DNA of 64,000 nt from Candidatus Woesearchaeota archaeon (lineage in GTDB: Archaea > Nanobdellota > Nanobdellia > Woesearchaeales > DSVV01), in the NCBI GenBank assembly GCA_016219865.1, contig JACRKF010000033.1, forward strand, positions 1,960 through 65,959, written 5' to 3'. How positions within the stretch are numbered: the first letter of the stretch is position 1; each line of letters starts with the position of its first letter. The notes beneath the pieces were generated by a model that did not search any database, had not been told where the DNA came from, and saw only the letters and a program-made list of their open reading frames with translations. Positions 3 through 49,379 of the stretch are shown one piece after another. A program made the translations under genes and the position numbers.

Positions 3-3000
3 ATTGGGCAGGCAGGAGAATTTGATTTCTCAGCCTCGCAATGTTTAAAATCATTAAAAGAAGAACAGATTGAAACAATATTAATCAATCCAAACATTGC
101 TACTATCCAGACTAGCGAAGGTATGGCTGATAGAATTTACTTTTTACCAATCACGCCATATTTTGTTGAGAAAATTATTGAAAAAGAAACTCCTGATGGA
201 ATTCTTCTCAGCTTTGGAGGGCAAACTGCATTAAATTGCGGCTTAGCTTTAGATAAGGCTGGAGTATTTGCAAGATTTGGTGTTAAAGTGCTTGGTACTC
301 CTGTGCAAAGTATCCGTGATACTGAAGATAGAGAATTATTTGTTAATAGGTTAAATGAAATCAATGTAAAGACAGCAAAAAGTTTTGCTGTTAATAACAT
401 AGCAGCAGCATTAAAAGCTGCGCAGCAAATAGGTTATCCTGTTATGTTGCGGGCAGGATTTTCTCTAGGTGGAAAAGGTTCTGGTGTTGTTTATGATGAA
501 ACAGAATTATTTGAAAGAGCGCAAAAAGCTCTTGCAGGTGTTGAACAAATTCTAATTGAAGAATATCTTGGCGGCTGGAAAGAGATTGAATATGAAGTTG
601 TGCGAGATTGCTATGATAACTGTATTACAGTCTGTAATATGGAAAACTTTGATCCAATGGGTATTCATACAGGAGAAAGCATTGTTGTTGCGCCTTCGCA
701 AACGCTTGATAATGCTGAATACCATCTGTTAAGAGAGATTTCTATAAAAGTTATACGCCACATTGGTATTATTGGCGAATGTAATATTCAATATGCATTG
801 CATCCTGAATCAAGAGAATATAGAGTAATTGAAGTAAACGCAAGACTTTCACGTAGTTCTGCTTTAGCTTCTAAAGCAACAGGTTATCCATTAGCATTTG
901 TTGCTGCAAAATTAGCATTAGGTTATTCATTATTAGATATAAGAAATAATATCACTAAAGTAACAACTGCTTGCTTTGAGCCGGCATTGGATTATATTGT
1001 TATCAAGATTCCGCGCTGGGATTTAAAGAAGTTCAAAGAAGTTGACAAAAGAATAGGCAGTGAAATGAAATCTGTTGGTGAAGTGATGGCAATTGGAAGA
1101 AGTTTTGAAGAAACACTTCAAAAAGCTATCCGTATGTTGAATATTCAAGCAGAAGGCTTATGCTGCAATAATAGTGAGTTTAATAATTTCCAGGATATAA
1201 GAAATGCATTAAAATATCCTACAGATACAAGAATCTTTGCAATTGTTGAGTCAATGAAACAAGGAATTGCAGTTGATGAGATTGCGCTTTTGACAGGAAT
1301 TGATAAATTTTTTCTCTATAAGATAAGGAACATTATTGATATGGAAAAAGAATTAAAAGAATTAACTGAAACAGCTTTAACTGAAACAACTTTGATGCAA
1401 TTAACTCCAGAATTATTATTAGAAGCAAAAAAGCTTGGATTTAGCGATAAACAAATTGGAATATTGCTGCATAAAGAAGAGTCAGAGATTCGCGAGCATA
1501 GACTGCAGCATAACATTATGCCATTCATCAAACAAATAGATACTCTGGCTGCTGAATATCCAGCGCAAACCAATTATCTTTATTTAACGTATAATGCTGC
1601 TGAGCATGATATTATATTTAGCTCCGAATTGCAAAATTCTCAGAATAATAATTCCATTATTATGTTAGGCAGCGGAGCATACAGGATAGGTTCAAGTGTT
1701 GAATTTGATTGGTGTTGTGTAAGCTGTGTAAAAGCATTGAAAAAAGCAGGAAAAAAAACAATTATGATCAATTGCAATCCTGAAACAGTCTCAACAGATT
1801 ATGATGAATGTGACAGGCTTTATTTTGAAGAATTAACTTTAGAAACAGTGTTGCAGATTAATTATTTTGAAAAGCCGTTTGGTATTGTAATTTCTATGGG
1901 CGGGCAGATACCAAACAATTTAGCTATGGATCTTCATAAGAACAATATAAAATTATTAGGAACAGATGCAATAGATATTGATTGCGCTGAAAACAGATAT
2001 AGATTTTCAGCATTGCTTGACAGTTTGGAGATTGAACAGCCGCAATGGATTGAGACAGCATCAATTAGTGAAGCTAAAAGATTTGCAGAAGCAGTTGGTT
2101 ATCCAATCTTAATCAGGCCAAGCTATGTATTAAGTGGCGCTGCAATGAATGTATTATATAATGAAGAACTTCTTGATTTTTATCTTCGAGAAGCAGTAGC
2201 ATTAAATCCAAAACATCCTGTTGTGATAACAAAGTTTATTGAACATGCAAAAGAGATTGAGATTGATGCTGTTGCGCAGAGAGGAGAGATTATTATTTTT
2301 GCAATAAGCGAGCATATTGAACATGCAGGAGTGCATTCAGGCGATGCAACAATGGTATTGCCATGCCAAAAGATTTATGTTGAGACATCCAAAAGAATTG
2401 AGGATTATGCGCGCAAGATTGCAAAAGCATTGTCAATAACAGGACCATTTAATATTCAATTTCTTGCTCAGGATAATTATGTCAAAGTGATTGAATGTAA
2501 TCTCAGAGCATCGCGAAGTTTTCCATTTTGTTCAAAAGTAACGAATTATAATTTCGTGGATATTGCTGCAAAAGCAATGCTTAATGAAACAGTAGAACCT
2601 GTTGGAGATGCGGCAAAAAATCTAAATTATGTTGGTGTAAAAGCAGCGCAGTTTTCATTTTCTCGGCTTAAAAATACAGATCCAATTGTTGGAGTAGAAA
2701 TGCGTTCAACTGGAGAAGTAGCATGTTTTGGCAATGATCTTGATGAAGCATTATTAAAATCATTAGTTGCAACTGGATTCTCAATACCGCAAAAAAGCAT
2801 TTTAGTAAGCATTTCTGGAGATAAAAACAGATTCAGGCTGATTAATGAACTGCGAAGATTATATGATAATGGATATTTATTGTATGCAACTGAGCACACT
2901 TCAGCATTTTTGACAGCAAATGGGATTGCAAATTACAGACTTTATAAGATAAAAGATAAGATTGAACCAAATGTTTTAAGTTATCTTCAGCAAAGAAAGA

Positions 3001-3224
3001 TTGATCTTGTTATTAGCATGCAGGATGAAAATAACGGAGAAATAAAGACAGATAGTTTTATTATTCGAAGAACTGCAATTGATTTTTCTGTGCCTTTGAT
3101 TAATAATGTGCAGCTGGCAAAAGCTATTGTTGATGCAATACTTCGGAAAAAGCAAGAAGAATTGCTGCCATTGGCATTAGATGAGTATGTTCCTAAGAGA
3201 ATTTTGCAAAGCAAAATTCTCTAA
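3..3224 (+). CDS. carB: Carbamoyl-phosphate synthase large subunit, 5'-partial (frame continues upstream of the window: IGQAGEFDFSASQ... precedes the first Met)
   Basis: 1033+ aa with two ATP-grasp halves and full CarB-like architecture. Upstream in-frame translation from nt 3 (GQAGEFDYSG-like motif) shows the ORF start lies outside the window. Confidence 0.9.
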   Translation: MGQAGEFDFSASQCLKSLKEEQIETILINPNIATIQTSEGMADRIYFLPITPYFVEKIIEKETPDGILLSFGGQTALNCGLALDKAGVFARFGVKVLGTPVQSIRDTEDRELFVNRLNEINVKTAKSFAVNNIAAALKAAQQIGYPVMLRAGFSLGGKGSGVVYDETELFERAQKALAGVEQILIEEYLGGWKEIEYEVVRDCYDNCITVCNMENFDPMGIHTGESIVVAPSQTLDNAEYHLLREISIKVIRHIGIIGECNIQYALHPESREYRVIEVNARLSRSSALASKATGYPLAFVAAKLALGYSLLDIRNNITKVTTACFEPALDYIVIKIPRWDLKKFKEVDKRIGSEMKSVGEVMAIGRSFEETLQKAIRMLNIQAEGLCCNNSEFNNFQDIRNALKYPTDTRIFAIVESMKQGIAVDEIALLTGIDKFFLYKIRNIIDMEKELKELTETALTETTLMQLTPELLLEAKKLGFSDKQIGILLHKEESEIREHRLQHNIMPFIKQIDTLAAEYPAQTNYLYLTYNAAEHDIIFSSELQNSQNNNSIIMLGSGAYRIGSSVEFDWCCVSCVKALKKAGKKTIMINCNPETVSTDYDECDRLYFEELTLETVLQINYFEKPFGIVISMGGQIPNNLAMDLHKNNIKLLGTDAIDIDCAENRYRFSALLDSLEIEQPQWIETASISEAKRFAEAVGYPILIRPSYVLSGAAMNVLYNEELLDFYLREAVALNPKHPVVITKFIEHAKEIEIDAVAQRGEIIIFAISEHIEHAGVHSGDATMVLPCQKIYVETSKRIEDYARKIAKALSITGPFNIQFLAQDNYVKVIECNLRASRSFPFCSKVTNYNFVDIAAKAMLNETVEPVGDAAKNLNYVGVKAAQFSFSRLKNTDPIVGVEMRSTGEVACFGNDLDEALLKSLVATGFSIPQKSILVSISGDKNRFRLINELRRLYDNGYLLYATEHTSAFLTANGIANYRLYKIKDKIEPNVLSYLQQRKIDLVISMQDENNGEIKTDSFIIRRTAIDFSVPLINNVQLAKAIVDAILRKKQEELLPLALDEYVPKRILQSKIL
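3197..3221. repeat. Perfect palindrome GAGAATTTTGC-AAA-GCAAAATTCTC (copy a), overlapping the last codons and stop of carB
   Basis: Read directly: 11-bp arms, 3-nt loop. Confidence 0.8.
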
Positions 3225-3265
3225 TATAGGCAATTCGGACAGATGGAACTTAGTTAGAGAATTAA

Positions 3266-4671
<1,406 letters not shown>

Positions 4672-19000: not shown

Positions 19001-22000
19001 ATGAACTATGGTTTCGGAGCAAAAACAAGAAAAGTATTGCAGTTTTATTTAGTTTACGCTTTATTCTTATTGTTGAGTGCTGCTTTTGTCACAGCAGACA
19101 ATATTAATTTTGCTATAATTACAGATACAAATGTTGGCATTGGGAGCATTGTATTAGCAGAACAAACTGATGCAGTTGTTAATTCAATTATTCATTCTCC
19201 GCAAAATATTGATTTTGTTATTCATCTTGGCAATATGGTAGCAGGAAGTTCTGCTGCAACAGCTGATGATGCTGAAAAGATGTGGAATGAATACAATCAG
19301 AAAGTTATAAAACAATTGCAGGATAAAAATATAGGACTGCTTTTAATTGCTAATAAACAAGATAAAGCAAATGCTGCATTAGAAAGTAATTATATCAATT
19401 TATTTAACTCTGCAACTCACGATTTTGTCTCTTCAGCAGCTGCAAAAGATAATTATGCATTTGTATACAAGAACAATCTTTTTATTGTTTTGCAGTATGA
19501 CAAAAATATTGACAAAAGCTGGTTAAAAGAACAGTTAGAAAATAATTATCAATCTGTTGACCATGTGTTTGTATTTTATCCAAACGAATTTGTTGCAATT
19601 GCAAAAGAAAAAACAACCTCCTTAGTCTGTAATAATTGCAATGACTTATTTTCTGCGCTTGATGCTTACAGCAATAAATTTGGCAACAAGGTAACATTAT
19701 TTACAGCATCATCTCAAGTTTATTACAAAGGAAATTACAAAGGATATGATATTGTCTCAGTTGGCGCAATTGACGAACCGCATACAATAATTGGAACTAA
19801 TGAACGGCAAAAAGCTGTGTATGCAGTTGTTAAAATAAATGATAAGGATACTGTTATTTATGGTGTTGAAGAGCAATTTGATCATTGGTTTTACGAATGC
19901 AGAAACCTGCCATTGATCCAGCCAGCAGGCTATGACAAATTTAAAGGAATGATTGCAGGATGCCAGCAGATAACAGGAGATAAAAAAACAAATGATATTA
20001 TCCAGTCACCCTGTATTATTCCTCCGCAATTTGAAGGATATGATCAATTTGCAAAAGCAAGAGGATTGATCGTTGAAAGTTTCAATGAAAAACATCCAGA
20101 ATATGATTCAATTATATTAGAAGCATCGCAAAGGTTTAACATGCCATTTGAATTGATTAAAGCAATTGTCATGGAAGAATCAGGTGGAAATCCTTTTCCA
20201 TCAAAACAATCTCTTGGTGGAACAACCTGCAATGAAAATGGATGTTTATGCAATCAACAAGGATTTTGTGGATTGATGGGAACAGGATTAAATTATGTTT
20301 GCTTAACTCCTTCTGAATGCAATAAACAAGCATTTATGGACGGAAACCCTCGTGACCAAATCTTTGCAGGAACCTCAATCCTCCGCAGAATAATAGACAA
20401 AAAACAATGCAAACTTGATAATAAGAATCTGCTTGATGATGTTAATAATCCTCAATATATCATGCATTTATTTGGCTGCTATGGAAAAGGTTCTGCTGAT
20501 AATAAAGAATATTGTGAAAGAGAAAATAAACCATGTGGTTATCCTGTTTTCCTCCGCAGAGCAATGCAAAAAAGTGCTAAACCTCTTGAAAAGATTACTC
20601 CTGCGGATATTGCTGCTGTAACTACAGATGCAAACGCAATAGTTCATAGTTACATAAAATATATTAAATTAAATCTCTGTAAAAATGGAGTCATCAATGA
20701 CCAAATAGCGCATCCAATTATTCAAAGTACTGCAGCGCAAAGCCAATCTGCATTAGCTAAAGTTGGAATTGCTCAAGGTGTTTCAACAGTCTATTATCTA
20801 ACACCTAACTTCAGAGTAAACATGGATAATGCATTCACAGATTATAAAACAATTAGAGAAGCAGCAACGCAATTAGTAACTGAAGTTAATGACTGCAGAA
20901 GTCGTGGCAATACTGTTGAGAATTGTTTTGCTATTAATATTAATAATCAAAAGTATAAAACGCTTGGAATTACAGTTGATAATCAATTATGCAAAGAAAG
21001 TCAGCTGGATAAATTCATCTATGATTCAATTGAGAATATGAAAACATGTTCAAGATTATCATTAAAAAAATGTCAGATGATTATCCCGCAGCAATATCCT
21101 GGAGAGGCAAAGCTTGATGAGAATGCAATTGCATTTGTTTTCTCATCTGTTGATGGCAAAACAATTCTTATTGAGGCATCTGTCAACAATATATTGCATA
21201 CTGCGGATAAAATAACTGGAAGCTTGGCATTATTTGAAGATTTTATAGCGCAGCCGGAGTTTAAAGATATGAAGAATGCAACAATTCTGCTGAAATATGA
21301 TAAATATCAATCTAAACACAATATATTATCATTTAATGATAATCATAATTTTGTTTCAAAAGACAAAATTATTCCTTTTGTTTTCAATCAGGATAATAAA
21401 TTAACTTTCTTTAGTGATAAGTTAGCGCAGCCATATTTTTCTTTTGCTGAAGCGCAGCAGCAGGAAATAGATGACATGCAAAAACTAAAAAAAGGTTTTA
21501 AGTTGTGCTATTTAAGCAAGAATACATTGTATGCAAAAGGTATGTTTGACACTTCTCCTGAAGATATTGCTTATTATGAGAATAATTTGCGTTATCCAAC
21601 AAAATTAAGAGCTCTTGTCTATAGATTTGCATTATTATTTGATGTTTCTCAGGCAATTCCTCATACAGCTATTGCAGCAGCTGACTTGCAGAAAGCAGAG
21701 AAAACTGTGCTTGTAAAGTTTGATAAACCAACTACTCCTGTTAAATATTATACATTATTTTTTTCTAACGAAAAAAATATATTGGAAAAACCTGCAAATG
21801 AGCTTAAAGATAAAGAAAATGTCCAGAAGATTATTCTTGATCCTAGCGCGGCAAAAACAGTAAGCGTCGCAGATTATTCTTTGCTTGGAGATGAAATAGT
21901 TATTGGCAAACTTTATTATAACATTCAGGAGAATATGTATTTCTTAGCAGTTGCAGTTGATAATGAATTAAAGCAATATTATTTTACTATTGCTGCAATG

Positions 22001-22480
22001 AGTGTTAATAATAAAGAACCGAATAATATTGATGCTGATCAAAAGCTAAATGTCATTGAAGGATTTTCAATTGATGATTTGCCTCCAGCATCGCCGGAAA
22101 TTGTTATTATTGAAGGTGCTTCTATTTCAGCAGCAGATATAAATCAAGAAGAGATCGAAAGCAATGTTGCATTAGCTGCGCCTCTTCAAGGAAGCATCGC
22201 AGTTGCTTGGGATAGTGTTGCAGATAATAGTAATCTTAATTATCTTCTTGCTGATTTAGATGGATATTTTGTTGTAATGCATGAGGATAAAGTTAATACT
22301 TCATTAAAGCTTACTAAAGATAATTGCAATACTGCAAATAATTGTCAATTTGTTTCTGCAGTATTGCCAGACAACAAAGATAGATTTGAAACAGTTTTTG
22401 CTGGATTAGATGATGCAAATAATTATATGGTTGTTGTTTATGCTGTTGATACTTCTGGAAATTATTTAGAAATTAAATAA
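19001..22480 (+). CDS. Large secreted protein (1159 aa) with a lytic-transglycosylase (SLT/lysozyme-like) domain
   Basis: N-terminal signal peptide. Residues ~370–470 read EASQRFNMPFELIKAIVMEESGGNP...GFCGLMGTG...DGNPRDQIFAGTSILRRI, which matches the family-1 LT motifs (catalytic E-S, G-L-M-[QG], downstream NP...I..G..IL) around a Cys-rich insertion. Confidence 0.5.
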   Translation: MNYGFGAKTRKVLQFYLVYALFLLLSAAFVTADNINFAIITDTNVGIGSIVLAEQTDAVVNSIIHSPQNIDFVIHLGNMVAGSSAATADDAEKMWNEYNQKVIKQLQDKNIGLLLIANKQDKANAALESNYINLFNSATHDFVSSAAAKDNYAFVYKNNLFIVLQYDKNIDKSWLKEQLENNYQSVDHVFVFYPNEFVAIAKEKTTSLVCNNCNDLFSALDAYSNKFGNKVTLFTASSQVYYKGNYKGYDIVSVGAIDEPHTIIGTNERQKAVYAVVKINDKDTVIYGVEEQFDHWFYECRNLPLIQPAGYDKFKGMIAGCQQITGDKKTNDIIQSPCIIPPQFEGYDQFAKARGLIVESFNEKHPEYDSIILEASQRFNMPFELIKAIVMEESGGNPFPSKQSLGGTTCNENGCLCNQQGFCGLMGTGLNYVCLTPSECNKQAFMDGNPRDQIFAGTSILRRIIDKKQCKLDNKNLLDDVNNPQYIMHLFGCYGKGSADNKEYCERENKPCGYPVFLRRAMQKSAKPLEKITPADIAAVTTDANAIVHSYIKYIKLNLCKNGVINDQIAHPIIQSTAAQSQSALAKVGIAQGVSTVYYLTPNFRVNMDNAFTDYKTIREAATQLVTEVNDCRSRGNTVENCFAININNQKYKTLGITVDNQLCKESQLDKFIYDSIENMKTCSRLSLKKCQMIIPQQYPGEAKLDENAIAFVFSSVDGKTILIEASVNNILHTADKITGSLALFEDFIAQPEFKDMKNATILLKYDKYQSKHNILSFNDNHNFVSKDKIIPFVFNQDNKLTFFSDKLAQPYFSFAEAQQQEIDDMQKLKKGFKLCYLSKNTLYAKGMFDTSPEDIAYYENNLRYPTKLRALVYRFALLFDVSQAIPHTAIAAADLQKAEKTVLVKFDKPTTPVKYYTLFFSNEKNILEKPANELKDKENVQKIILDPSAAKTVSVADYSLLGDEIVIGKLYYNIQENMYFLAVAVDNELKQYYFTIAAMSVNNKEPNNIDADQKLNVIEGFSIDDLPPASPEIVIIEGASISAADINQEEIESNVALAAPLQGSIAVAWDSVADNSNLNYLLADLDGYFVVMHEDKVNTSLKLTKDNCNTANNCQFVSAVLPDNKDRFETVFAGLDDANNYMVVVYAVDTSGNYLEIK

Positions 22481-25347: not shown

Positions 25348-26343
25348 TTATTTACATATCTTATAGAAGATTATAATGATAATTATAAATAACAACAAGA
25401 CATAAGGAATTACTTTAGCTATCTTCATTGTTTTTGATTGATAAATTATACTATTGTTTTTGTTGCTAATGTTTTCTTGTATTGACTGATAATCATTCAC
25501 AGATGATTTAGAAAGATTATTATTAATTGGTATAATTAGTTTTTCTTTCTTCTGCATCATCTTTGGTTCTTTGATTATTTCATTTGCATATTGTTGTATA
25601 TTATCATTGTTCAGCAATGGTTGTTCAATCTCTATCTCTTTTACTTGAATAATCTGTTTATTATCCTTAAGTTTACTAAATGTTGTTTTTGTTGCTGATT
25701 TCTGGCTCTTCTTTGCTGCTTTGCTTGTTACTTCTTTTGTTTTCTTGTTATTTTTTGGTCTTGTTATTTTCTTTTCTTTGATATTTTTGATAGAATTACT
25801 ATCAATTGCTTGATTATCTTCAATTTCAGTTAATGCTATATCCTTGTTTATCACAATCGGAATTGATGCAGTATTGCCGCAGCCTGTTATTACAAATAAA
25901 TAATTTGTTTGATTTGACTTTTGTTTAATATCATCATATAAAACTGAGATATTAAGTATCTGATAAGCAACTATATTTCTTCCGCGAATATGGATAGTTT
26001 GCTTTTTAGTAATTATTTTCTTATCTAAATCAGCAATATAATAATAATAGGCATATTTAGTTGTATTAACTTTAGTAATTATTACATCTGCTGTAAACTT
26101 ACATTCACTAGAACTATTGTATAATTTGCATGTTTGCAGCTCTTTATTATTTATTTCTATGCTTGAAGCAAAATTATTCAATCCTATATTCGTTCCATTA
26201 GTATTATTAACCTCATTGCTTTCATTGCTATTAATGTCATTACTCTCTAAATCCTCAGCTTTTGCAAGACTTGATAATAAGACTATGCTTAAAACAATAA
26301 CCAGGATAAACCCTATTTTTAACAGTGCTTTTGACTTTATCAT
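25348..26343 (-). CDS. Secreted Asn-rich surface protein with a C-terminal TM anchor
   Basis: N-terminal signal (MIKSKALLKIGFILVIVLSIVLL). N-rich body with many sequons. C-terminal VIPYVLLLFIIIIIIFYKICK anchor. Confidence 0.5.
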   Translation of the reverse strand: MIKSKALLKIGFILVIVLSIVLLSSLAKAEDLESNDINSNESNEVNNTNGTNIGLNNFASSIEINNKELQTCKLYNSSSECKFTADVIITKVNTTKYAYYYYIADLDKKIITKKQTIHIRGRNIVAYQILNISVLYDDIKQKSNQTNYLFVITGCGNTASIPIVINKDIALTEIEDNQAIDSNSIKNIKEKKITRPKNNKKTKEVTSKAAKKSQKSATKTTFSKLKDNKQIIQVKEIEIEQPLLNNDNIQQYANEIIKEPKMMQKKEKLIIPINNNLSKSSVNDYQSIQENISNKNNSIIYQSKTMKIAKVIPYVLLLFIIIIIIFYKICK

Positions 26344-27109: not shown

Positions 27110-27217
27110 AAGAAATTCGGAATCATTGTGTATTAATAAATATTTTGAATTGTGTCGTATTAGAACGACAACTATATATATAATAACTTCTCAAAATAAG
27201 AATTGGTTAATAAAAAA

Positions 27218-27231
27218 TGAACGGAGTGAAT
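27218..27231 (+). promoter_or_regulatory. 14-nt element TGAACGGAGTGAAT between ATAAAAAA and TTTTTAT, 6 nt upstream of the antiporter ATG
   Basis: Read directly. Confidence 0.4.
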
Positions 27232-27236
27232 TTTTT

Positions 27237-28454
27237 ATGAGCACTTTAATAATTATCTTACTTTGCCTATTCCTGGCATATATCTTTTCTAATATTTGCA
27301 GGCATCTTAATGTTCCGCGAGTAATTGGGCAGATTGCAGTTGGATTATTGCTTGGCATACCTGTTATAAAAATAATGTTGTTTGATAATACTTCACTTTC
27401 AATGATTGAAAGCTTAGCGCAAATTGGGATTATTCTGTTATTCTTCTTTATTGGATTAGAGATTGATACAAGCATTTTTAAGAGGGATTTTAAGGAAGCT
27501 AGTTATATCTCATTATTTAATACAACATTGCCATTATTGCTTGGTTTTATAGTATGTAAGTTTTTGCTAGGTTTTTCTGTAACTGCTAGTTTAGTTATAG
27601 CTATATCATTATCTGTCAGCGCGCAAAGTGTCAGTATTGATTTCCTTGAAGAGTTAAGATTAATAAAAACAAGAATAGGAAATCTTATCATTACAGGTGG
27701 AGCTGTAGATGATATTTTCGAGTTGTTATTGATTAGCATTGTTTTTTTGTTTATTGAAGGAACAACTTCACAATATGGGTTTCTGAAATTAATTGTTGAA
27801 TTATTTATATTTACGATAATTATTCTTATTTTTAAGATCTATGTTATACCAATGATTCTTCATTCTGCTGAAAGTGAGAAATCAACAGCAACATTATTCA
27901 TGGGTGCATTGATTATTGTATTATTAATGGCAGCATTAGCTGAGTTTCTTCATGTTGGCGCATTAGTTGGAGCATTGTTTGCCGGATTAACTGTGAGAAA
28001 AATATTATTAGATGGAGATAATAAAAAGCCATGGGAAGAGCATTTGATCTCCAATACAATCCACATTATTGCATTTGGTTTTCTTGTACCCATGTTTTTT
28101 ATCTGGATTGGCTTAACAACAGATATTCCTGCAATTATTGATAATATAGGATTGGCAGGAATATTCTTTGCAATTGCCTGCATTGGAACAATTGGTGGTA
28201 CAATCTTAGGTGTAATGCGAGCGCAAGGAAGCTTTAATGAAGGTTTATTGATAGGAATTGGATTAAATCCAAAAGGAGATGTTGAATTGGTTTTAGCTGC
28301 ATTTGCGCTTCAGGCAGGAATAATCTCAAAAGGTGTGTTTTCAGCATTAGTATTAATGGCAATTGCAACAACATTGTTTAGCCCAATATTATTCCGATAT
28401 ATCATTACTAAGGAGCATATTTTGAAGAAGATTAAAGCTGGAGTTAGGTTATGA
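27237..28454 (+). CDS. Cation:proton antiporter (CPA/Na+-H+ exchanger family)
   Basis: About 12 TM segments with the FFFIGLEID motif. Start reassigned from the track start 27126 to ATG 27237 (MSTLIIILL), because 27218–27231 is the recurrent upstream element. Confidence 0.75.
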   Translation: MSTLIIILLCLFLAYIFSNICRHLNVPRVIGQIAVGLLLGIPVIKIMLFDNTSLSMIESLAQIGIILLFFFIGLEIDTSIFKRDFKEASYISLFNTTLPLLLGFIVCKFLLGFSVTASLVIAISLSVSAQSVSIDFLEELRLIKTRIGNLIITGGAVDDIFELLLISIVFLFIEGTTSQYGFLKLIVELFIFTIIILIFKIYVIPMILHSAESEKSTATLFMGALIIVLLMAALAEFLHVGALVGALFAGLTVRKILLDGDNKKPWEEHLISNTIHIIAFGFLVPMFFIWIGLTTDIPAIIDNIGLAGIFFAIACIGTIGGTILGVMRAQGSFNEGLLIGIGLNPKGDVELVLAAFALQAGIISKGVFSALVLMAIATTLFSPILFRYIITKEHILKKIKAGVRL

Positions 28455-28518
28455 GGTTATAAAAAACTCGTTTTACTAAATCATAATCTTTATATATATG
28501 TATATGTATATATTTCTT

Positions 28519-28731
28519 ATGTCGCAAATTATAAGTATATCAGATGATGTATATACTACATTAAAGAAAATGAAAGGGAAGAATAGTTATTCTGAAGTAA
28601 TCAGGATACTATTGCATACAAAGACAAATAAAGAAAAGATTTTAGGATGTTTTGGAAAAGGAGGAGTGGATTCCGAGAAAGTAAAAGAGCTCGATAATCT
28701 TTGGAAGAAATGGTCAGAAAAATATGCTTAG
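28519..28731 (+). CDS. vapB: VapB-type antitoxin (PIN-associated)
   Basis: MSQIISISDDVYTTLKKMKGKNSYSEVIRILL is the typical small antitoxin found upstream of an overlapping PIN gene. Confidence 0.55.
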   Translation: MSQIISISDDVYTTLKKMKGKNSYSEVIRILLHTKTNKEKILGCFGKGGVDSEKVKELDNLWKKWSEKYA

Positions 28732-29093
28732 ATTCAGATGTACTGATCTCTATCATGAATAACGATCTGAGAGTAAAAACTATATTTCAGTCGTTAGATT
28801 CACATTTCTATACAACTTCAATTAATTCATTTGAAATATGGTATGGTAGAAAAGATTCTGAGAATATATCTGAGTTATTGCAATCACTAATTAAATTAGA
28901 GCTGGATGACCATTCAGCAAGGATTGCTGCAGATATTCTCAGAGAATTAAGGAGAAAAGGCGAATTAATTGATGTAAAGGATTTGTTTATTGCTTCCATC
29001 TGTATTAAAAATAATCTAGAATTATTTACATTCAATAAAAAACATTTTGAACGATTACAGAAATACGGATTACAATTACCTAATTTTGAATAA
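28710..29093 (+). CDS. vapC: PIN-domain ribonuclease toxin VapC
   Basis: CLDSDVLI N-terminal acidic motif and FIASICIKNNLELFTFNKKHF C-terminal PIN motifs. Overlaps the antitoxin 3' end. Confidence 0.65.
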   Translation: MVRKICLDSDVLISIMNNDLRVKTIFQSLDSHFYTTSINSFEIWYGRKDSENISELLQSLIKLELDDHSARIAADILRELRRKGELIDVKDLFIASICIKNNLELFTFNKKHFERLQKYGLQLPNFE

Positions 29094-29107
29094 AAAAGGT
29101 TATAACA

Positions 29108-29662
29108 ATGCAGATACCAAAAGAAGCAAAAAAAGTATTTTCCGGCTATATCTTTAATATTTGGCACTGGCAGCAAGAGATGTTTGATGGTAGTTTTGAA
29201 ACATTTGAAATGATTGAGCGAAGAGCAGTTGTTGATATAATTGCAACAGTTGGCAATAAGATAATTACATTAGAGCAAGAACAACCTGCTAGAAAAAAGT
29301 ATCCTGCATTGCCTGGCGGAATGATTGACAAGGGTGAATTGCCAATCAACAGCGCAAAAAGAGAGTTGCGTGAAGAAACAGGATATAATTGTAAAAATAT
29401 AGAGCTTCTTGATGAGGATACTGGCAAAGGAAAACAATATTTTCATCAATCAATCTTTCTGGCAAAAGATTGTATCAAAGAAGGAATGCAGCATCTTGAT
29501 AAAGGAGAAAAGATAACTGTCAAACTTGTTTCTTATGATGAATTTTTGCAGCTTTGCAGAGATCCTCAGTTTGCTGCGCCGTATAAATTAATTTTTAAGA
29601 TGTATGAGTGTTTATTGGATAGAAATAAGAAAGAAGATTTTAGGAAGAAGATATTTGGTTGA
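29108..29662 (+). CDS. Nudix hydrolase
   Basis: Nudix box GGMIDKGELPINSAKRELREETGY. Confidence 0.8.
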   Translation: MQIPKEAKKVFSGYIFNIWHWQQEMFDGSFETFEMIERRAVVDIIATVGNKIITLEQEQPARKKYPALPGGMIDKGELPINSAKRELREETGYNCKNIELLDEDTGKGKQYFHQSIFLAKDCIKEGMQHLDKGEKITVKLVSYDEFLQLCRDPQFAAPYKLIFKMYECLLDRNKKEDFRKKIFG

Positions 29663-30046
29663 TTATGCTTTCATCTCACATAATACTTCTGATTCTAATA
29701 AAGGTGTTGTAACTTTCGTCATAATTATTTCTTCTTTCTGAATTCTTTTGTTTCTTAACAAAAGAGAGAAATGTAATTTAAGATTAATAGTGTTGTCTTC
29801 AACTTTTATAATGAACTCCCATTTGCTGAGACTGTTAAATGCATTCTTAGACAACCTAAATAGTTTTGATGCGTCAAATATCTGAATTCCTGTAATATAT
29901 CCTTCTTTATCAATATCTAACACAAAATTATTTAATTCAAGCGATTTCTTATAATCCCTCTCTTTGATCTTAAAAAAAAGAATATCATTAGATAAATCAT
30001 AGGCAGATTCTCCCTTTCCACGCGCATCTAGTTTTTTTAAGCTCAT
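29663..30046 (-). CDS. DUF2283-like small protein (putative antitoxin partner)
   Basis: YDLSNDILFFKIKE...GYITGIQIFDASKL resembles the DUF2283 Y-D-x-E-x-D-x-L-Y-I fold. Lies immediately downstream of a DUF4258-like ORF. Confidence 0.4.
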   Translation of the reverse strand: MSLKKLDARGKGESAYDLSNDILFFKIKERDYKKSLELNNFVLDIDKEGYITGIQIFDASKLFRLSKNAFNSLSKWEFIIKVEDNTINLKLHFSLLLRNKRIQKEEIIMTKVTTPLLESEVLCEMKA

Positions 30047-30047
30047 T

Positions 30048-30362
30048 TTATATCCTTGGTAAATGTTCTGTTATGAAAAAAGTAATAATTTCAATACATT
30101 CTGTCTTGACTGATATAATCATTCTGATATATCCATAATTTCTTTTGTAAAATACAGCGTAATTCTTGTTTTCCTGGATTCCTATTAAATGAGGGCTTTC
30201 TTTAGTTAAAAGATAAATAAGATAGTCTTCCTTATATATTTTTCTTTGCATCTCGCTAAGACGATATAAGGCATGCGGGGAAATGACAATATTATTTTTA
30301 TATTTACTTATTAAATAACCCCATTCTTCTTTTGATATTATCTCTATAATCTTCGTTGCCAT
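30048..30362 (-). CDS. DUF4258-like small protein (putative toxin partner)
   Basis: ISPHALYRLSEMQRKIYKEDYL matches the DUF4258 F-S-x-H-A-x-x-R-x-x-E-R motif. 1-nt spacing from the DUF2283-like ORF. Confidence 0.4.
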   Translation of the reverse strand: MATKIIEIISKEEWGYLISKYKNNIVISPHALYRLSEMQRKIYKEDYLIYLLTKESPHLIGIQENKNYAVFYKRNYGYIRMIISVKTECIEIITFFITEHLPRI

Positions 30363-30498
30363 GTATACATTTAACAGTTTAACAGAAACTTATTAATAAG
30401 ATTATACACCCAAAGAGCGAAATAATCTCTTAATTTTAGAGAAATAATACAGAAAATTTGAAAAACTTTCTGAAAAAACGATTATTTCTAGAAATTCT

Positions 30499-30600
30499 TC
30501 AACTTTTCTGAAAATCCAATGATAATGAATTAACACAATGCCGTATGTTTTTCTTTGTCAGATGTTCACCTTCAAACACATGACCAAGATGAGCATTACC
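30499..30600 (-). pseudogene. msrB: C-terminal relic of methionine-R-sulfoxide reductase MsrB (33 codons, no start codon)
   Basis: Minus-strand translation (R)[33 protein letters not shown] carries the MsrB signatures HLGHVF and R[YH]C[IV]NS. An in-frame stop lies immediately upstream, and no N-terminal part is present. Confidence 0.45.
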
Positions 30601-30741
30601 TCTTTAATTTACTTTAATAAGGATATAAATTATCGCCGATAAATTTAATATAATAACATAATTAGAAAAAGAAAATTAAAAAAGACAAATACTTTATCGA
30701 ACTTTTTGAAATAATTATCCATCTTTTATTCACTAATATGA

Positions 30742-31311
30742 CTAAAACTCCACTTTAACATCTTGCTTGTCAGCTTCTGAAACTTTGAACATCTCTTTTT
30801 TCTGCAAAGCCATCATTCTTGCTACAATCATGTCAGGAAATGATTCAATCCTAATATTAAAGTTATTTGTGCTGTCATTGTAATATTCTCTTCTATCAGC
30901 TAATTCATTTTCAATGCCTGAGATTCTGCCTTGCAACTGGATAAAATTTTCATTTGCTTTTAAGTTTGGATAATTTTCTGCAACTGCAAACAATGATTTT
31001 AATGCTCCAGACAAAACACCGTCAGCTGCTGCTTTTTGTGAAGTTGTTGTTGCATTTAGGAAAGCTGTTCTTGCTTTGACAATGTTCTCAAGCAATGTCT
31101 TTTCATGCTTCATATAACCTTTAACTGAAGCAATTAACTTAGGAAGTTCATCACTTCTTTGTTTTAAAAGAACATCGATATTTGCAAATGCTTTTTCAAT
31201 ATTATTCTTTAATGTTACTAACCCATTGTAAATTCCAACTAAATATGCAATAAATCCAATTACAAAGAGGATTACTGCTACTAAGATTATAATTGTTAAT
31301 CCGACTGCCAT
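30742..31311 (-). CDS. lemA: LemA family membrane protein
   Basis: N-terminal TM followed by YNGLVTLKNNIEKAFANIDVLLKQRSDELPKLIASVKGYMKHEKTLLE, the canonical LemA block. Confidence 0.8.
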   Translation of the reverse strand: MAVGLTIIILVAVILFVIGFIAYLVGIYNGLVTLKNNIEKAFANIDVLLKQRSDELPKLIASVKGYMKHEKTLLENIVKARTAFLNATTTSQKAAADGVLSGALKSLFAVAENYPNLKANENFIQLQGRISGIENELADRREYYNDSTNNFNIRIESFPDMIVARMMALQKKEMFKVSEADKQDVKVEF

Positions 31312-31370
31312 ATTGACTGTACCTCCATATTATTTATTATGATAGTTTCTATTGTAGTATATATAATTTT

Positions 31371-32189
31371 CTAAAACATTCCAATATAAAACAACACATA
31401 AGTCAAACAAGCTAATGCTAAAACAGCTCCACCTATAATGCCGCCAAACACAGACCATTTCATTGATGACAATACTGCTTTTTCATCTTTGTCAGAGATG
31501 TAGTAGGTTGCATTATTTCCTTTTTGAATCATAATGCCTTCTTCATTGAATCTAGCTGTGCCTTCTTTAATAAATGGATTCTTTCCAGCAGTGCCTAGAA
31601 TATATAATTTATCGCCTGGCGCAATATAATATTCACGATAACGCATTGTTAGATTTCCACCAAACCATCCTTCAAATGAAACTTTATTTGCTTTTAAAAA
31701 ATTCAATACATTTGCTGGCGGGTCTTTGCCAAAACTAGAGTTATATTCTGTGTCAACTGGAATATCCAACTCTGCTTTTTCTGTATCAACTAAAACACTG
31801 CCTGTCTTGTCTTTGACTAACAAATATTTTCCAGCAGTACCTTCTTTAACAGTTACCCAATATGAGCTTCTTCTGCTTCGCACGTATTTTTCTACAGTAT
31901 ATTTGTAAAAAAGACATTCTTTTTGAGAAAATGGTGATTTTAATATTTCTTTTGGAACAGCTTGACCGAAATTAGTTACCTTGCTTTTTAACAATTCTTG
32001 ATAAGGAAGAACAACAGCATAAACTTCAACCAACCCAATTGCTAATGAACGAATATTAGATGTAGGCATATTTTCAATTGTGCGTTTTAGTTTCAGTTTC
32101 TTAAAACCTTTATAGAAAAACCATAAGCCTCCGAAAAATCCAACTATTGAATAAACAAATAGTTTTGCTGCTCCTTCACCAGATGCCAT
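31371..32189 (-). CDS. Two-TM membrane protein downstream of LemA (possible GIDE-like domain protein)
   Basis: N- and C-terminal TM helices flank a ~200-aa soluble domain. LemA adjacency is typical for GIDE/TPM-type partners. No motif confirmation. Confidence 0.3.
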   Translation of the reverse strand: MASGEGAAKLFVYSIVGFFGGLWFFYKGFKKLKLKRTIENMPTSNIRSLAIGLVEVYAVVLPYQELLKSKVTNFGQAVPKEILKSPFSQKECLFYKYTVEKYVRSRRSSYWVTVKEGTAGKYLLVKDKTGSVLVDTEKAELDIPVDTEYNSSFGKDPPANVLNFLKANKVSFEGWFGGNLTMRYREYYIAPGDKLYILGTAGKNPFIKEGTARFNEEGIMIQKGNNATYYISDKDEKAVLSSMKWSVFGGIIGGAVLALACLTYVLFYIGMF

Positions 32190-32260: not shown

Positions 32261-32836
32261 ATGATAATCGGCATTACTGGATATATAGGCGCAGGAAAAA
32301 CTACTGCTGCAACATTCTGTAAAGAATTAGGTTACAGCATTGTTGATTGCGACAGCATTGGTCATGAGATTCTTGAGAAAGATACTGAAATCCAGCATAA
32401 ATTAATTGGAAGATATGGCAATAAGATAATTGGAAGAGATTTAAAGATTAATCGGGAAATATTAGCAGAACTTATTTTTAATAATCAAGAAAACATTGAC
32501 GAATTAAATAAGATAATACATCCAAAATTAAAAGCAATTGTATACCAATTGCTCGATAAAGCAGCGCAAGAAAATAAAAAAGTGATTGTTGAAGCTGCTA
32601 TACTAAAAGAACTTGAATTAGACACAAAAGTTGATAAGATTATTATCATTAAATCTGAGATTAGCATAATCTATGAGCGATTAAAGAAAAGATATTCGCA
32701 AAAACAAGTTGTTAATATCATGAACAAGCAATTGCTTCCTAAAAAGTATGATTATTTAATCTTAAATAATGAAAGCATTGAAGAATTAAAAAGACGTGTT
32801 GTTGAGATTGTAAATAAGCTGTCAAAATTCTCTTAA
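32261..32836 (+). CDS. coaE: Dephospho-CoA kinase (bacterial-type CoaE family)
   Basis: P-loop GITGYIGAGKTT, DCDSIGHEIL, and IIHPKLKAIV (the THPxI motif). Confidence 0.65.
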   Translation: MIIGITGYIGAGKTTAATFCKELGYSIVDCDSIGHEILEKDTEIQHKLIGRYGNKIIGRDLKINREILAELIFNNQENIDELNKIIHPKLKAIVYQLLDKAAQENKKVIVEAAILKELELDTKVDKIIIIKSEISIIYERLKKRYSQKQVVNIMNKQLLPKKYDYLILNNESIEELKRRVVEIVNKLSKFS

Positions 32837-32837
32837 T

Positions 32838-35054
32838 TTATTCTATTTTAACGCACAATCTATCGATGCCTATATCAACAAAGCTTAGCATTTGATTTGT
32901 TGTGTAACTTATTGATTTTCCTGAGAAACCAATTGGTTTTCCATCTTTTAATATACAAACAAATATATTCTCAAATATTGGCAGATTATTGAATGAACCT
33001 GATTTTACTTCTGCATTATTTACATTTAATTGTAGTTTACCATCTGCATTAATTATTACATTTGATCCTTGAAAGAATGGATATGCTAGTTGTTGTTTGC
33101 AATTTGTTTGCTTTTTTATCTTTGTCATATCAAGATCATTTAAGTTAATTACTAAATGTATTGCTGAAGTTGTTTTATAATTTAAATCATAATTATATAG
33201 GTGAAGCAGATCTAAATGAATTGATTCAGGTTCAAGGATGTACAGTTCATTATTGTAATAATAATATGCGTACTGATTATAATCTATTGATGGTTCAAGT
33301 ATAGTTGATGGTGTATCAGTCATATCGCTAAAAAGCAATACTCTGCTGCCATCTTCATCTTCTTTGATAACCCTAAGATAATTATGAGCAACTGTTGAGA
33401 GTTCTTGATTTTCTTGATTATCTGTTGATCCTTGACAATCAGATTTATCATATGCATTTCCAGAGTTACATATATTTGATGATTTTCGTTGAGCTTCAAC
33501 TTCTTCTGGAGTTTTATAATAACATTTTCCATAATCGATTACAGTTTTAAAGTTGTTTCCTGTTGTTGTATCTTGTGTTGCTTCTTGTATTAAAGAATAT
33601 TCGCCAAAATTACTTGCATCAGCTGCTTCATCGCATTTTTTGATTGTATCCGCAATAGTATCAGGTTCCATCTTCTTATTTGTTGCATCAATTTTATGAT
33701 TGTTAATCTGCAATAGAATTCCAAAATCCAATGTAATCTCCTGTGATGATTTATCATTTAGATTAATCTTTTTATTTTTTGTTTCTCTTTCTGATAGGAT
33801 TATTGATTTTGCATTTTCAGCTTGTTTGTATTGATCAGAACTTCTCTCAGCTATGTCTGACTTAGGAATGACATATAATTCATCATTAAATAACTCTAAG
33901 TCTGCTGCATTAGTTGAGATTAAATCAAAATGTGTTTTGGGTTCATTATTATCTATGAATAACAACTCTTTCTGCTGTCCAAGACGAACAATCCTCAAAT
34001 AATATTGTTGAACTGTTTCTGGACATTTTCCTGTTTCAATTCTCCTAGTCATACCGTCTGCGCCAACAAATTCCTTTTTCAGATTGCCATTCTTATTAAG
34101 ATTAGAGATATCATCGCATGACTCAATAAGATTTTCTTTCACCTCAATAAATGGTGTATCAAGATTTATCTTTTCACCAAGGTTTGTTTCATCAAGATTG
34201 CCTTGCGCATCAAAATAATATCTGTAAATTGCTTTTTGTTGCGCTATTGCTGGAAGAAAATCAATGCGTTGATTATTATAAGCTCCTTGTTTTAACAGTT
34301 TAAAATAATCAGTTGGATTTGTCTTAGCTATTGTTTCTTCTCTGCAAGCATCATATATTTTTTGGAGTTCTGCAAAGTTCTTATCGATTATAGGCATGAA
34401 TCCTGGAGAAGTGCAGCACATTGGATCATTAACATTGCAGTTATTTGAGCAGAATGTTATTTCATCATTCAATTTTACAATCTTTAATGGATAAACTTTA
34501 TCAAAACTTTTTATATAAACGCAGTCATAAGTCTTTGTGCTGTCATACTGTTTTATGTCAGATACATATTTCTGCATAAACAATGGATCCATTTTTGAAA
34601 AGAATTGATATCTTGTCTGTGTTGCTTTTTTTGTAATTGGTTTGCATTCAATTATTTCATTGCATAATCCAATAGCGCTTGATTTGCATAAACAAAGACA
34701 GTCGCTTGTCTTGCATTCTTGTGGAAGTTCTTTATCAAACATTCTGATATTCTTGCCTTCTTTATTATCGCCTTTTACTTCTTCAACAAATTCGCATAAT
34801 TCTGGAGTTGTATCGATTATCGCATAATCACTGTCTAATTTAAACGGTCTTTCTATTGGTTTATTATCAGCCATAATATCCAGAGTTGCTAACAGGCTAT
34901 GAAAACTTTCTTTTGCAGCTTGTTCAGTTGAATCATGAAAAAAGAGTTGATAGATTCCAACTGCAAGAATTAAAAGAACAATGAAAGCTGCTGCTACTAA
35001 CACAGCTTCTGCTACTGTTTCTAATGTCATCATCTCAGCTTTTTTATGGCGCAT
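32838..35054 (-). CDS. Large Cys-rich extracellular protein with a pilin-like N-terminus
   Basis: MRHKKAEMMTLETVAEAVLVAAAFIVLLILAVG (KKAE + TM), then 700 aa rich in Cys with no recognisable catalytic motif. Confidence 0.5.
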   Translation of the reverse strand: MRHKKAEMMTLETVAEAVLVAAAFIVLLILAVGIYQLFFHDSTEQAAKESFHSLLATLDIMADNKPIERPFKLDSDYAIIDTTPELCEFVEEVKGDNKEGKNIRMFDKELPQECKTSDCLCLCKSSAIGLCNEIIECKPITKKATQTRYQFFSKMDPLFMQKYVSDIKQYDSTKTYDCVYIKSFDKVYPLKIVKLNDEITFCSNNCNVNDPMCCTSPGFMPIIDKNFAELQKIYDACREETIAKTNPTDYFKLLKQGAYNNQRIDFLPAIAQQKAIYRYYFDAQGNLDETNLGEKINLDTPFIEVKENLIESCDDISNLNKNGNLKKEFVGADGMTRRIETGKCPETVQQYYLRIVRLGQQKELLFIDNNEPKTHFDLISTNAADLELFNDELYVIPKSDIAERSSDQYKQAENAKSIILSERETKNKKINLNDKSSQEITLDFGILLQINNHKIDATNKKMEPDTIADTIKKCDEAADASNFGEYSLIQEATQDTTTGNNFKTVIDYGKCYYKTPEEVEAQRKSSNICNSGNAYDKSDCQGSTDNQENQELSTVAHNYLRVIKEDEDGSRVLLFSDMTDTPSTILEPSIDYNQYAYYYYNNELYILEPESIHLDLLHLYNYDLNYKTTSAIHLVINLNDLDMTKIKKQTNCKQQLAYPFFQGSNVIINADGKLQLNVNNAEVKSGSFNNLPIFENIFVCILKDGKPIGFSGKSISYTTNQMLSFVDIGIDRLCVKIE

Positions 35055-48794: not shown

Positions 48795-49016
48795 ATGCTA
48801 ATTTGTAAAACAAGGAAATGGGGTTCTTCATTGGGGATAATAGTCCCTAAAAAAGCTGCTGAGAGATTGCACCTTTATGAAAATCAAGAAGTAATTATAG
48901 AGATACAACCAAAAGATAATGTTTTAAAAGACCTCTTCGGATATGCAAAAGGAAGAATAAGAAGAAATACAGATGAAATAATTGCAGATGCAAGAAAAGA
49001 ATTAGGTGTTGATTAG
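48795..49016 (+). CDS. AbrB/MazE-type (SpoVT-AbrB) antitoxin
   Basis: KTRKWGSSLGIIVPKKAAERLHL is the swapped-hairpin AbrB motif. Stop TAG abuts the next ATG. Confidence 0.6.
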   Translation: MLICKTRKWGSSLGIIVPKKAAERLHLYENQEVIIEIQPKDNVLKDLFGYAKGRIRRNTDEIIADARKELGVD

Positions 49017-49379
49017 ATGTATTGTTTAGACACATATGCCTTATGGGAGATACAATTTGCGAATGAGAAATTTGTTAAGTTCCTGAAAGAAGACTTTGTC
49101 ATCACAGAATGGACGTTGATAGAATTCTATAAAACACTATTAAGAGAATATAATCAACAAACAGCAGATTATTGGTCCAGACGATTATTACCTCATTGTA
49201 AAAATATTTCAATTGAGATAGCATTGAAATCTGTTTTATACCAGCATGAAAACAAAAAAGAAAATATGTCGTTATTTGATTGCATTGGATATATTTATTC
49301 ACAAGAAAACAACCTTGTTTTTGTAACAGGAGATAAAGCTTTTAGGAACAGAGCAAAAGTATTATTTATACAAAAATAA
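49017..49379 (+). CDS. PIN-domain toxin (VapC-like)
   Basis: LDTYAL N-terminal acidic motif; C-terminal FVTGDKAF PIN motif. Confidence 0.55.
   Translation: MYCLDTYALWEIQFANEKFVKFLKEDFVITEWTLIEFYKTLLREYNQQTADYWSRRLLPHCKNISIEIALKSVLYQHENKKENMSLFDCIGYIYSQENNLVFVTGDKAFRNRAKVLFIQK

Follow-up and report, generated by a model that had tools for sequence, protein, structure and literature searches.

Probable independent turnover of toxin–antitoxin modules around resident nudix and msrB genes in a Woesearchaeota genome

Background

When toxin–antitoxin (TA) genes lie directly beside the gene for a Nudix hydrolase, do these genes act together, or are they only neighbors? We addressed this question for a 2.1-kb stretch (positions 28498 to 30600) within 64,000 nucleotides of DNA from a Candidatus Woesearchaeota archaeon (GenBank assembly GCA_016219865.1, contig JACRKF010000033.1). 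The whole of this analyzed DNA is referred to here as the window. On its forward strand, the stretch carries a vapB–vapC module followed by a Nudix hydrolase gene (nudix). On its reverse strand are a two-gene cassette, consisting of a 104-codon open reading frame (ORF) that we call ORF104 and a gene for a DUF2283 protein, and a relic of msrB. A preliminary description of this DNA had proposed that these genes form a compact defense and stress islet, in which vapBC and nudix might be a functional unit. All ORFs named in that description are present where it placed them.

Our analysis indicates that the stretch is probably a juxtaposition and not a system: TA modules appear to turn over independently around the resident genes nudix and msrB. 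The evidence comes from a survey of the genes that neighbor Nudix orthologs in other genomes and from a comparison with a close relative of the locus.

Results and discussion

Neighbors of Nudix orthologs

For 79 loci, we called the immediate upstream neighbor of the Nudix ortholog and scanned it against Pfam. These neighbors are a housekeeping mixture that includes Mur ligases, alanine racemase, ABC transporters, tRNA synthetases and others. A gene for a PIN-domain protein occupies this position in only one of the 79 loci, in Candidatus Doudnabacteria (locus L038). Given that the 64-kb window itself contains two PIN genes, a single PIN–Nudix adjacency among 79 loci corresponds to chance expectation.

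We also used phmmer to compare the window's VapB, PIN, MsrB, DUF2283 and ORF104 proteins with all ORFs within 3 kb on either side of 80 Nudix orthologs (E ≤ 0.01). No match to any of these proteins was found near the 80 orthologs, and the Nudix protein, serving as a positive control, was recovered in 80 of 80 loci. The closest homologs of the Nudix protein (48–53% identity) adjoin genes for TyrRS, a DNA methyltransferase or GDPD, and none of them has a TA neighbor. In these loci, the Nudix gene thus shows no conserved link to toxin or defense genes. An independent distribution of the Nudix gene had been set beforehand as the result that refutes a unit, and this is the distribution that we found: at least 597 species-representative genomes carry the family, the great majority from Patescibacteria and a few from DPANN archaea (Woesearchaeota and Nanoarchaeota).

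At L038 (positions 2260–3558), the Nudix ortholog directly follows the PIN gene (PF01850, E 4e-18), which is in turn overlapped from upstream by an 84-amino-acid (aa) ORF.

Comparison with a close relative

A 1071-bp contig from Hainich groundwater (ENA ERZ1292641; hereafter L006) encodes a Nudix protein that is 88% identical to that of the window. The two sequences were compared by using blastn and MAFFT. They align in four collinear blocks: the 3' end of vapB (window 28656–28727, L006 1–72; 84.7% nucleotide identity), nudix (window 29092–29655, L006 51–616; 85.2%), the 3' end of msrB (window 30510–30599, L006 654–743; 84.4%) and the 3' end of lemA (window 30741–30762, L006 1048–1069; 95%). 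No further close relative of the locus emerged from a scan of JGI metagenomes, in which partial identity did not exceed 51%.

The vapC gene is exactly missing from L006, leaving a 384-bp gap in the alignment with an ATGC microhomology at the junction. The vapB frame of L006 extends by five codons, and the nudix ATG lies inside the 3' end of vapB. Because vapB is retained, the most plausible reading is that L006 underwent a deletion of the toxin gene alone. On this reading, an orphan vapB would be translationally coupled to a housekeeping nudix gene.

An 854-bp segment of the window (29656..30509), which comprises the DUF2283 gene, ORF104 and 147 nucleotides (nt) upstream of the latter, is also absent from L006, where 37 bp are present instead. 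Homology between the two sequences ends at window position 29655 and resumes at 30510. The guanine–cytosine (GC) content of the segment is 27.2%, lower than that of nudix (34%) or of the window as a whole (32%). The nudix and msrB genes of L006 converge, with a 7-nt spacer between them, and its msrB is complete, encoding a 120-aa protein with a SelR domain. The Nudix protein of the window has 184 residues and ends in KKIFG; the family usually has 184–185 residues and the consensus ending KKIFx. The L006 protein ends in KKIFTENC, three residues longer than that of the window. Codon changes between the two nudix genes are 46 synonymous and 22 non-synonymous.

The msrB gene of the window is reduced to its C-terminal 33 sense codons (30499..30600, reverse strand), which match positions 85–116 of the 116 in PF01641 (E 1.8e-9) as well as NF004036 (E 1.7e-14). 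This relic has no start codon; it is bounded by an in-frame stop directly upstream (30601–30603) and by its own stop (30499–30501). It keeps the motifs HLGHVF and RHCVNS, the latter with the catalytic cysteine, and both zinc CxxC motifs are gone. A tblastn search of the window with the L006 MsrB protein recovered residues 86–116 only, and no second msrB copy was found within the 64 kb. Aligned with the full-length gene, the relic is orthologous to L006 654–743 (84% nucleotide identity). The earlier suggestion of gene decay therefore holds, given this match to the SelR tail and the full-length 120-aa ortholog at the same place in L006, and the fragment is predicted to be a non-functional pseudogene remnant.

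Upstream of the relic lie 141 nt of unrelated filler sequence with 17.7% GC (30601..30741), which replaces msrB codons 1–86 and the msrB–lemA spacer (304 bp in L006). The filler shows no similarity to L006 744–1047 beyond that of shuffled controls, and none to any other locus compared. Across 30 codons, the relic and the L006 msrB gene have 10 synonymous-only differences and 4 non-synonymous differences, 2 of which are at the breakpoint. Because synonymous changes are in excess both here and in nudix, most of the divergence would have accrued under selection, and the truncation of msrB looks comparatively recent.

These comparisons suggest the following history. The native backbone would consist of vapB(C) and nudix on the forward strand, and msrB and then lemA on the reverse strand, with nudix and msrB as convergent residents. 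Two independent, selfish type II TA modules would have lodged around nudix, with vapBC upstream and the 854-bp cassette between the 3' ends of nudix and msrB. The L006 lineage would have lost vapC by a 384-bp deletion at the ATGC microhomology, leaving an orphan vapB over the nudix start. In the window lineage, msrB would have lost its first ~86 codons, leaving a dead fragment of 33 codons.

A unit or a juxtaposition?

Under the alternative proposed in the preliminary description, vapBC and the Nudix gene, with or without the second gene pair, would be a coordinated defense or stress module whose Nudix enzyme acts on molecules derived from nicotinamide adenine dinucleotide (NAD) or ADP-ribose alongside the toxin. 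Several observations favor this alternative and count against a simple juxtaposition. The vapB, vapC and nudix genes share one strand, and the 14-nt gap before nudix is compatible with cotranscription. The vapB stop region of L006 overlaps the nudix start, and the distant Doudnabacteria genome provides an independent case of a PIN pair just upstream of a Nudix ortholog. The Nudix protein also has a weak match to the PADLOC model PDC-S07 (E 5.4e-6). Moreover, the L006 junctions come from one 1071-bp contig with a coverage of about 1. The PDC-S07 match, however, spans only the generic Nudix fold, and the Doudnabacteria adjacency is as frequent as chance would have it. VapC toxins cleave RNA and are not known to be linked to NAD or ADP-ribose. 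The lack of VapB, PIN, MsrB, DUF2283 or ORF104 matches near the 80 orthologs also speaks against a unit, as do the TyrRS, GDPD and methyltransferase genes beside the closest homologs. In addition, vapC is dispensable in L006, which also lacks the DUF2283 cassette but keeps nudix, whose codon changes point to purifying selection. The two TA modules differ independently of each other between these close strains, which speaks for ordinary flux of such modules and against co-selection as a unit. We therefore do not uphold the proposed vapBC–Nudix association or the compact defense unit, and we consider a coordinated module to be very improbable.

If juxtaposition is accepted, the direction of the cassette difference must still be judged from two genomes and no outgroup, a comparison in which the cassette could equally have been deleted from L006. 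An ancestral cassette between nudix and msrB, later deleted in the L006 lineage, would agree with the family-typical C-terminus of the window's Nudix protein and the longer tail in L006, and with the ease with which TA modules are lost, as vapC was in L006. It agrees less well with the six unrelated contexts in which the cassette was found elsewhere (see below), which imply mobility, with a cassette GC content below that of the flanking genes, or with the 7-nt convergent spacing in L006, which is typical of compact genomes. We judge this history to be rather unlikely. An insertion in the window lineage is favored but not proven, because the cassette occurs in many unrelated contexts and has a lower GC content (27% versus 32–34%).

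The vapBC module

The vapB-type antitoxin gene (28498..28731, forward strand) matches PF02697 (VAPB_antitox) over residues 11–74 of its product with E 1.5e-13, and NCBIfam model PRK13696 with E 2.4e-12, which is under the cut-off of that model. Its true start is likely the ATG at 28519 rather than that at 28498. The TATA-like sequence TTTATATATA, at about 28489–28498, lies 5' of ATG 28519 and could be a promoter element of vapB. The PIN-domain toxin gene vapC (28710..29093, forward strand, with the ORF beginning at 28701 or 28710) matches PF01850 with E 2.4e-10 and 41.5 bits (cut-off 23.6). With the vapB stop at 28729–28731, the two genes overlap by 22 nt if the ATG at 28710 is used. These matches and the overlap agree with the module recognized earlier, as does the 14-nt gap to the Nudix ORF that directly follows.

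NCBIfam VapC models match the PIN ORF with E 3.6e-14, under their cut-off. The equivalog models for VapC tRNA(fMet) endonucleases were not reached (53.2 bits versus 140 for NF047863, and 42.4 versus 80 for NF047959), so that the RNA target of this VapC cannot be inferred from them. In a sequence search of the PDB, the PIN ORF matched the VapC toxins 3zvk, 6ifc and 1v96. It retains D8, E42, D91 and N109, and N109 aligns with the asparagine of the solved VapC structure 3zvk. The genes upstream of nudix are thus predicted to be a canonical vapBC type II TA module. VapC toxins are RNA-cleaving enzymes that VapB proteins inhibit. By analogy, the VapC of the window would be a PIN endoribonuclease kept inactive by VapB, and the 22-nt overlap would couple their translation.

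A second type II TA module lies elsewhere in the window on the forward strand. It consists of a gene for an AbrB/MazE-fold antitoxin (48795..49016; PF04014, E 1.8e-6) and one for a PIN toxin (49017..49379; PF01850, E 6.7e-5), and these matches support the AbrB–PIN pair previously noted there.

The Nudix hydrolase

The Nudix gene (29108..29662, forward strand) begins 14 nt after vapC. The Nudix label is secure, given the match of its product to PF00293 (E 2e-14, 54.2 bits) and an intact Nudix box, G-x5-E-x7-REUxEExGU, at residues 71–93 (GMIDKGELPINSAKRELREETGY). The best NCBIfam match is NudE (E 2.3e-12), with 46.8 bits versus a cut-off of 169. In a sequence search of the PDB, all of the best relatives are ADP-ribose pyrophosphatases, with E values of about 1e-14. 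A signature of the family is an N-terminal WQQEMFDG motif. An exact-sequence look-up of the window's Nudix protein returned no record. The similarities to other enzymes make a housekeeping pyrophosphatase of ADP-ribose or ADP-sugars, resembling NudF or NudE, its most likely identity, and we infer ADP-ribose as its probable substrate.

The archaeal Nudix copy is 50–57% identical to bacterial copies. This level of identity suggests gene exchange between bacteria of the candidate phyla radiation (CPR) and DPANN archaea.

The ORF104–DUF2283 cassette

The cassette would be ordered as promoter, ORF104 and DUF2283 gene. ORF104 (30048..30362, reverse strand) encodes a putative toxin of the BECR/RelE superfamily, resembling MqsR, and ends 1 nt before the DUF2283 ORF (29663..30046, reverse strand), which encodes a putative antitoxin of 127 aa. 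Residues 16–60 of the latter match PF10049 with E 6.9e-10 and 39.4 bits (cut-off 23), as expected from its earlier label, and its C-terminal 67 residues lie beyond the match. The 147 nt upstream of ORF104 (30363..30509, reverse strand; 23% GC) presumably contain the promoter of the cassette; this region is not conserved in loci L007–L009. It includes an imperfect 29-nt palindrome (30450–30478 and 30482–30510; 76% complementary, with a 3-nt spacer) that sits exactly at the right-hand edge of the segment absent from L006. This palindrome could be an operator, a recombination site or a chance feature of AT-rich DNA.

ORF104 had been labeled DUF4258-like. It has no match in Pfam or NCBIfam even at E ≤ 10, and its sole PADLOC match, PDC-S13 (E 0.011), is not useful. 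Nor does any of 113 ORF104 relatives match PF14076, the DUF4258 model, at E ≤ 0.01. When these 113 relatives were scanned at E ≤ 10, DUF4258 appeared amid noise in 5 (best E 0.013) and YoeB_toxin in 3. ORF104 is therefore not assigned to Pfam DUF4258, and the earlier label stands only at the level of fold and superfamily: the predicted fold of ORF104 is that of the BECR/RelE-superfamily toxins. A Foldseek search of the PDB gave a list dominated by HigB, MqsR, RelE and ParE structures, all with E > 0.1. The ORF104 family profile had no match among PDB sequences, a structure search of BFVD returned only uncharacterized viral proteins, and a tblastn search of plasmids with ORF104 gave no match.

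A word-indexed search recovered only two non-self relatives of ORF104 (51–52% identity), one of them with a weak match to PF27370 ('MJ0788'). When 1.84 billion cluster representatives were searched exhaustively with HMMER, 153 clusters of the ORF104 family were found, almost all of 100–115 aa. Residues H30, R40, P57, Q63, N65 and T94 are near-invariant in the family.

In each of six further genomic contexts, the gene that directly follows the ORF104 homolog encodes a DUF2283 protein. These partners have 123–139 aa and are separated from the homolog by a 1-nt gap or overlap it by 4–11 nt, and this conserved pairing, with the 1-nt spacing in the window, bears out the two-gene, TA-like architecture suggested earlier. 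The six contexts are unrelated, with an IS110 transposase and RHS, ParA, enolase or exosome genes as neighbors, and the GC content of the hosts ranges from 29% to 62%. The DUF2283 partners are 48–50% identical over their full length, including a C-terminal extension with an SEVLC motif. When the partner profile was searched against the PDB, the only matches were EF-hand-like, to calmodulin (E 0.006–0.2). The EF-hand likeness of residues 3–53 was judged spurious, since it is driven by the motif D-I-D-K-E-G-Y-I-T-G. One 103-aa protein (P0223 in alignment A4) matches the DUF2283 partners (E ~1e-17, residues 10–73) and also the ORF104 profile, over the C-terminal half of the latter (E 1.6e-5). This ORF could be a chimera or a fusion, or the beta-sheets of the two partners could be genuinely alike.

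Thermus plasmids carry pairs annotated as DUF4258 (90 aa) followed by DUF2283 (74 aa), in the same order as in the window. An hhalign comparison of the ORF104 family with a single Thermus DUF4258 protein gave a collinear alignment with a shared H-A-x-x-R motif, which is non-significant (E 0.022, probability 2%). A plasmid search for diverse DUF4258 sequences returned only near-identical Thermus copies. One RefSeq 'DUF4258 domain-containing protein', on Thermus thermophilus plasmid pTthSNM1-1e (L090, positions 1262–1534), has no PF14076 match at E ≤ 0.01, and annotated DUF4258 members can thus themselves be marginal to this model. DUF4258 has been listed as a BECR-fold toxin family for which no activity has been demonstrated (PMC11980606, Table 1), and has been reassigned to a colicin-like/Ntox49 branch (bioRxiv 10.64898/2026.08.28.747851).

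We read the pair as a mobile, TA-like bicistron in which ORF104 is a predicted BECR-fold toxin and a distant sister of DUF4258, not a member of it. ORF104 would be a ribonuclease toxin with the MqsR/RelE fold, whose candidate catalytic residues are H30 and R40, and the DUF2283 protein, made from the same mRNA, would neutralize it by direct binding; fold, conservation and gene order point to these roles. Slightly favored, in our judgment, is that ORF104 and its DUF2283 partner of 123–139 aa constitute an uncharacterized mobile TA family, found mostly in archaeal (DPANN-type) contexts, with an MqsR-like BECR ribonuclease as toxin and a long DUF2283 protein as antitoxin, distantly related to the DUF4258–DUF2283 pairs. 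Some points tell against this. The toxin and antitoxin roles at this locus are all predicted, DUF2283 has no recognized DNA-binding or antitoxin activity, and a single-sequence structure model of the DUF2283 protein had a mean confidence (predicted local distance difference test) of only 36 and was unusable.

The same points, with Foldseek E values that all exceed 0.1 and the undemonstrated activity of DUF4258 itself, would suit a two-gene module of another kind, such as an RNA-binding or regulatory pair whose BECR-like fold is non-catalytic. The polar residues H30, R40, Q63 and N65 are near-invariant, however, and the pair bears hallmarks of TA modules: strict bicistronic coupling, small genes, and a patchy occurrence in unrelated contexts, including beside transposases. 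We consider this other kind of module unlikely.

Setting of the locus

The window carries an archaeal gene set, including genes for ribosomal proteins S4e and L32e, a Sec61-type SecY and an RPA-like OB-fold protein. Its GC content is ~32% throughout, and the cassette and TA segments are only mildly below this (27–28%). No tRNA genes and no Rfam matches were found in the window. A search of the window for marks of a genomic island found no integrase or recombinase ORF, no tRNA and no convincing flanking repeats. Target-site duplications and terminal repeats were also sought around both the cassette and the stretch, and only AT-rich repeats at chance level came to light. The 2.1-kb stretch thus lacks the recombinase, tRNA or repeat boundary, and compositional shift that mark genomic or defense islands. 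A scan for promoters and terminators gave results at or below shuffle expectation, with models that are bacterial and a host that is archaeal.

To the left, the stretch is flanked by a Na+/H+ exchanger gene (27126..28454, forward strand), and to the right by lemA (30742..31311, reverse strand; PF04011, E 5e-53), which adjoins msrB in L006 also. Next come genes for a GIDE-like membrane protein (PF12483, E 7e-9) and a CoaE-type kinase. The lemA and GIDE-like genes (30742–32189, reverse strand) resemble a pair of conserved style beside the stretch. The kinase gene (32261–32836, forward strand) encodes a dephospho-CoA kinase of the bacterial CoaE type (PF01121, E 1.3e-30) in an archaeal genome. 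Archaea normally rely on an unrelated DPCK rather than on the CoaE type, and this gene may be a further horizontal acquisition. Among the larger ORFs of the window, those at 19001–22480 (forward strand, 1159 aa), 32838–35054 (reverse strand, 738 aa) and 25348–26343 (reverse strand, 331 aa) have no Pfam match at E ≤ 0.001.

Implications

The locus represents ordinary biology: around the resident genes of a DPANN genome, TA modules build up and decay. Its value is mainly corrective: where a compact genome has TA genes next to a Nudix gene, an immunity unit based on NAD or ADP-ribose should not be assumed from adjacency without signs of co-occurrence, and here the co-occurrence survey was negative. 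Together, the window and its ~85%-identical relative L006 neatly illustrate how TA modules turn over in a DPANN archaeon, with a precise toxin-only deletion, a cassette between convergent genes that is present in one genome and absent from the other, and the collateral loss of msrB. A modest lead is a small BECR-fold family (153 clusters) that is all but unannotated and whose members are strictly paired with long DUF2283 proteins. If the TA reading of this pair is true, it would give DUF2283 its first assigned role, and the family offers an easy experimental entry to the function of DUF2283 and of DUF4258-like modules.

Comparison with known systems

The vapBC pair resembles known VapBC modules, such as Rickettsia VapBC (3zvk), the VapC tRNA(fMet) endonucleases of Shigella and Salmonella, and Pyrococcus VapC4, in its PIN toxin with D8, E42, D91 and N109 and in the small antitoxin gene that lies upstream and overlaps the toxin start. 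Unlike AbrB, Phd or ribbon–helix–helix antitoxins, the antitoxin of this pair is of the archaeal PF02697 type. The Nudix protein is similar in length to the ADP-ribose pyrophosphatases NudF, NudE, Thermus thermophilus Ndx4 and the Mycobacterium tuberculosis ADPRase, has the intact box, and is alike over ~150 residues (E ~1e-14). It differs from these enzymes in belonging to a distinct subfamily, mainly of Patescibacteria, with the N-terminal motif W-Q-Q-E-M-F-D-G. With respect to MsrB (SelR), the relic retains catalytic motifs but only 33 of 120 codons.

The cassette shares with the DUF4258–DUF2283 pairs of Thermus plasmids a toxin-like gene in first position, an N-terminal H-A-x-x-R motif and a BECR-type fold. 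It differs in its longer DUF2283 partner (123–139 aa, versus 74 aa in Thermus), which is extended at its C-terminus by a conserved segment that ends in SEVLC. ORF104 and its 113 relatives differ from DUF4258 itself in missing PF14076, and their only curated label is the weak PF27370 match. Compared with MqsR of Escherichia coli MqsRA, ORF104 has 10% sequence identity, and its partner is not a zinc/helix–turn–helix antitoxin of the MqsA type. The toxin-first order of the ORF104–DUF2283 pair is nevertheless that of mqsRA, higBA and brnTA.

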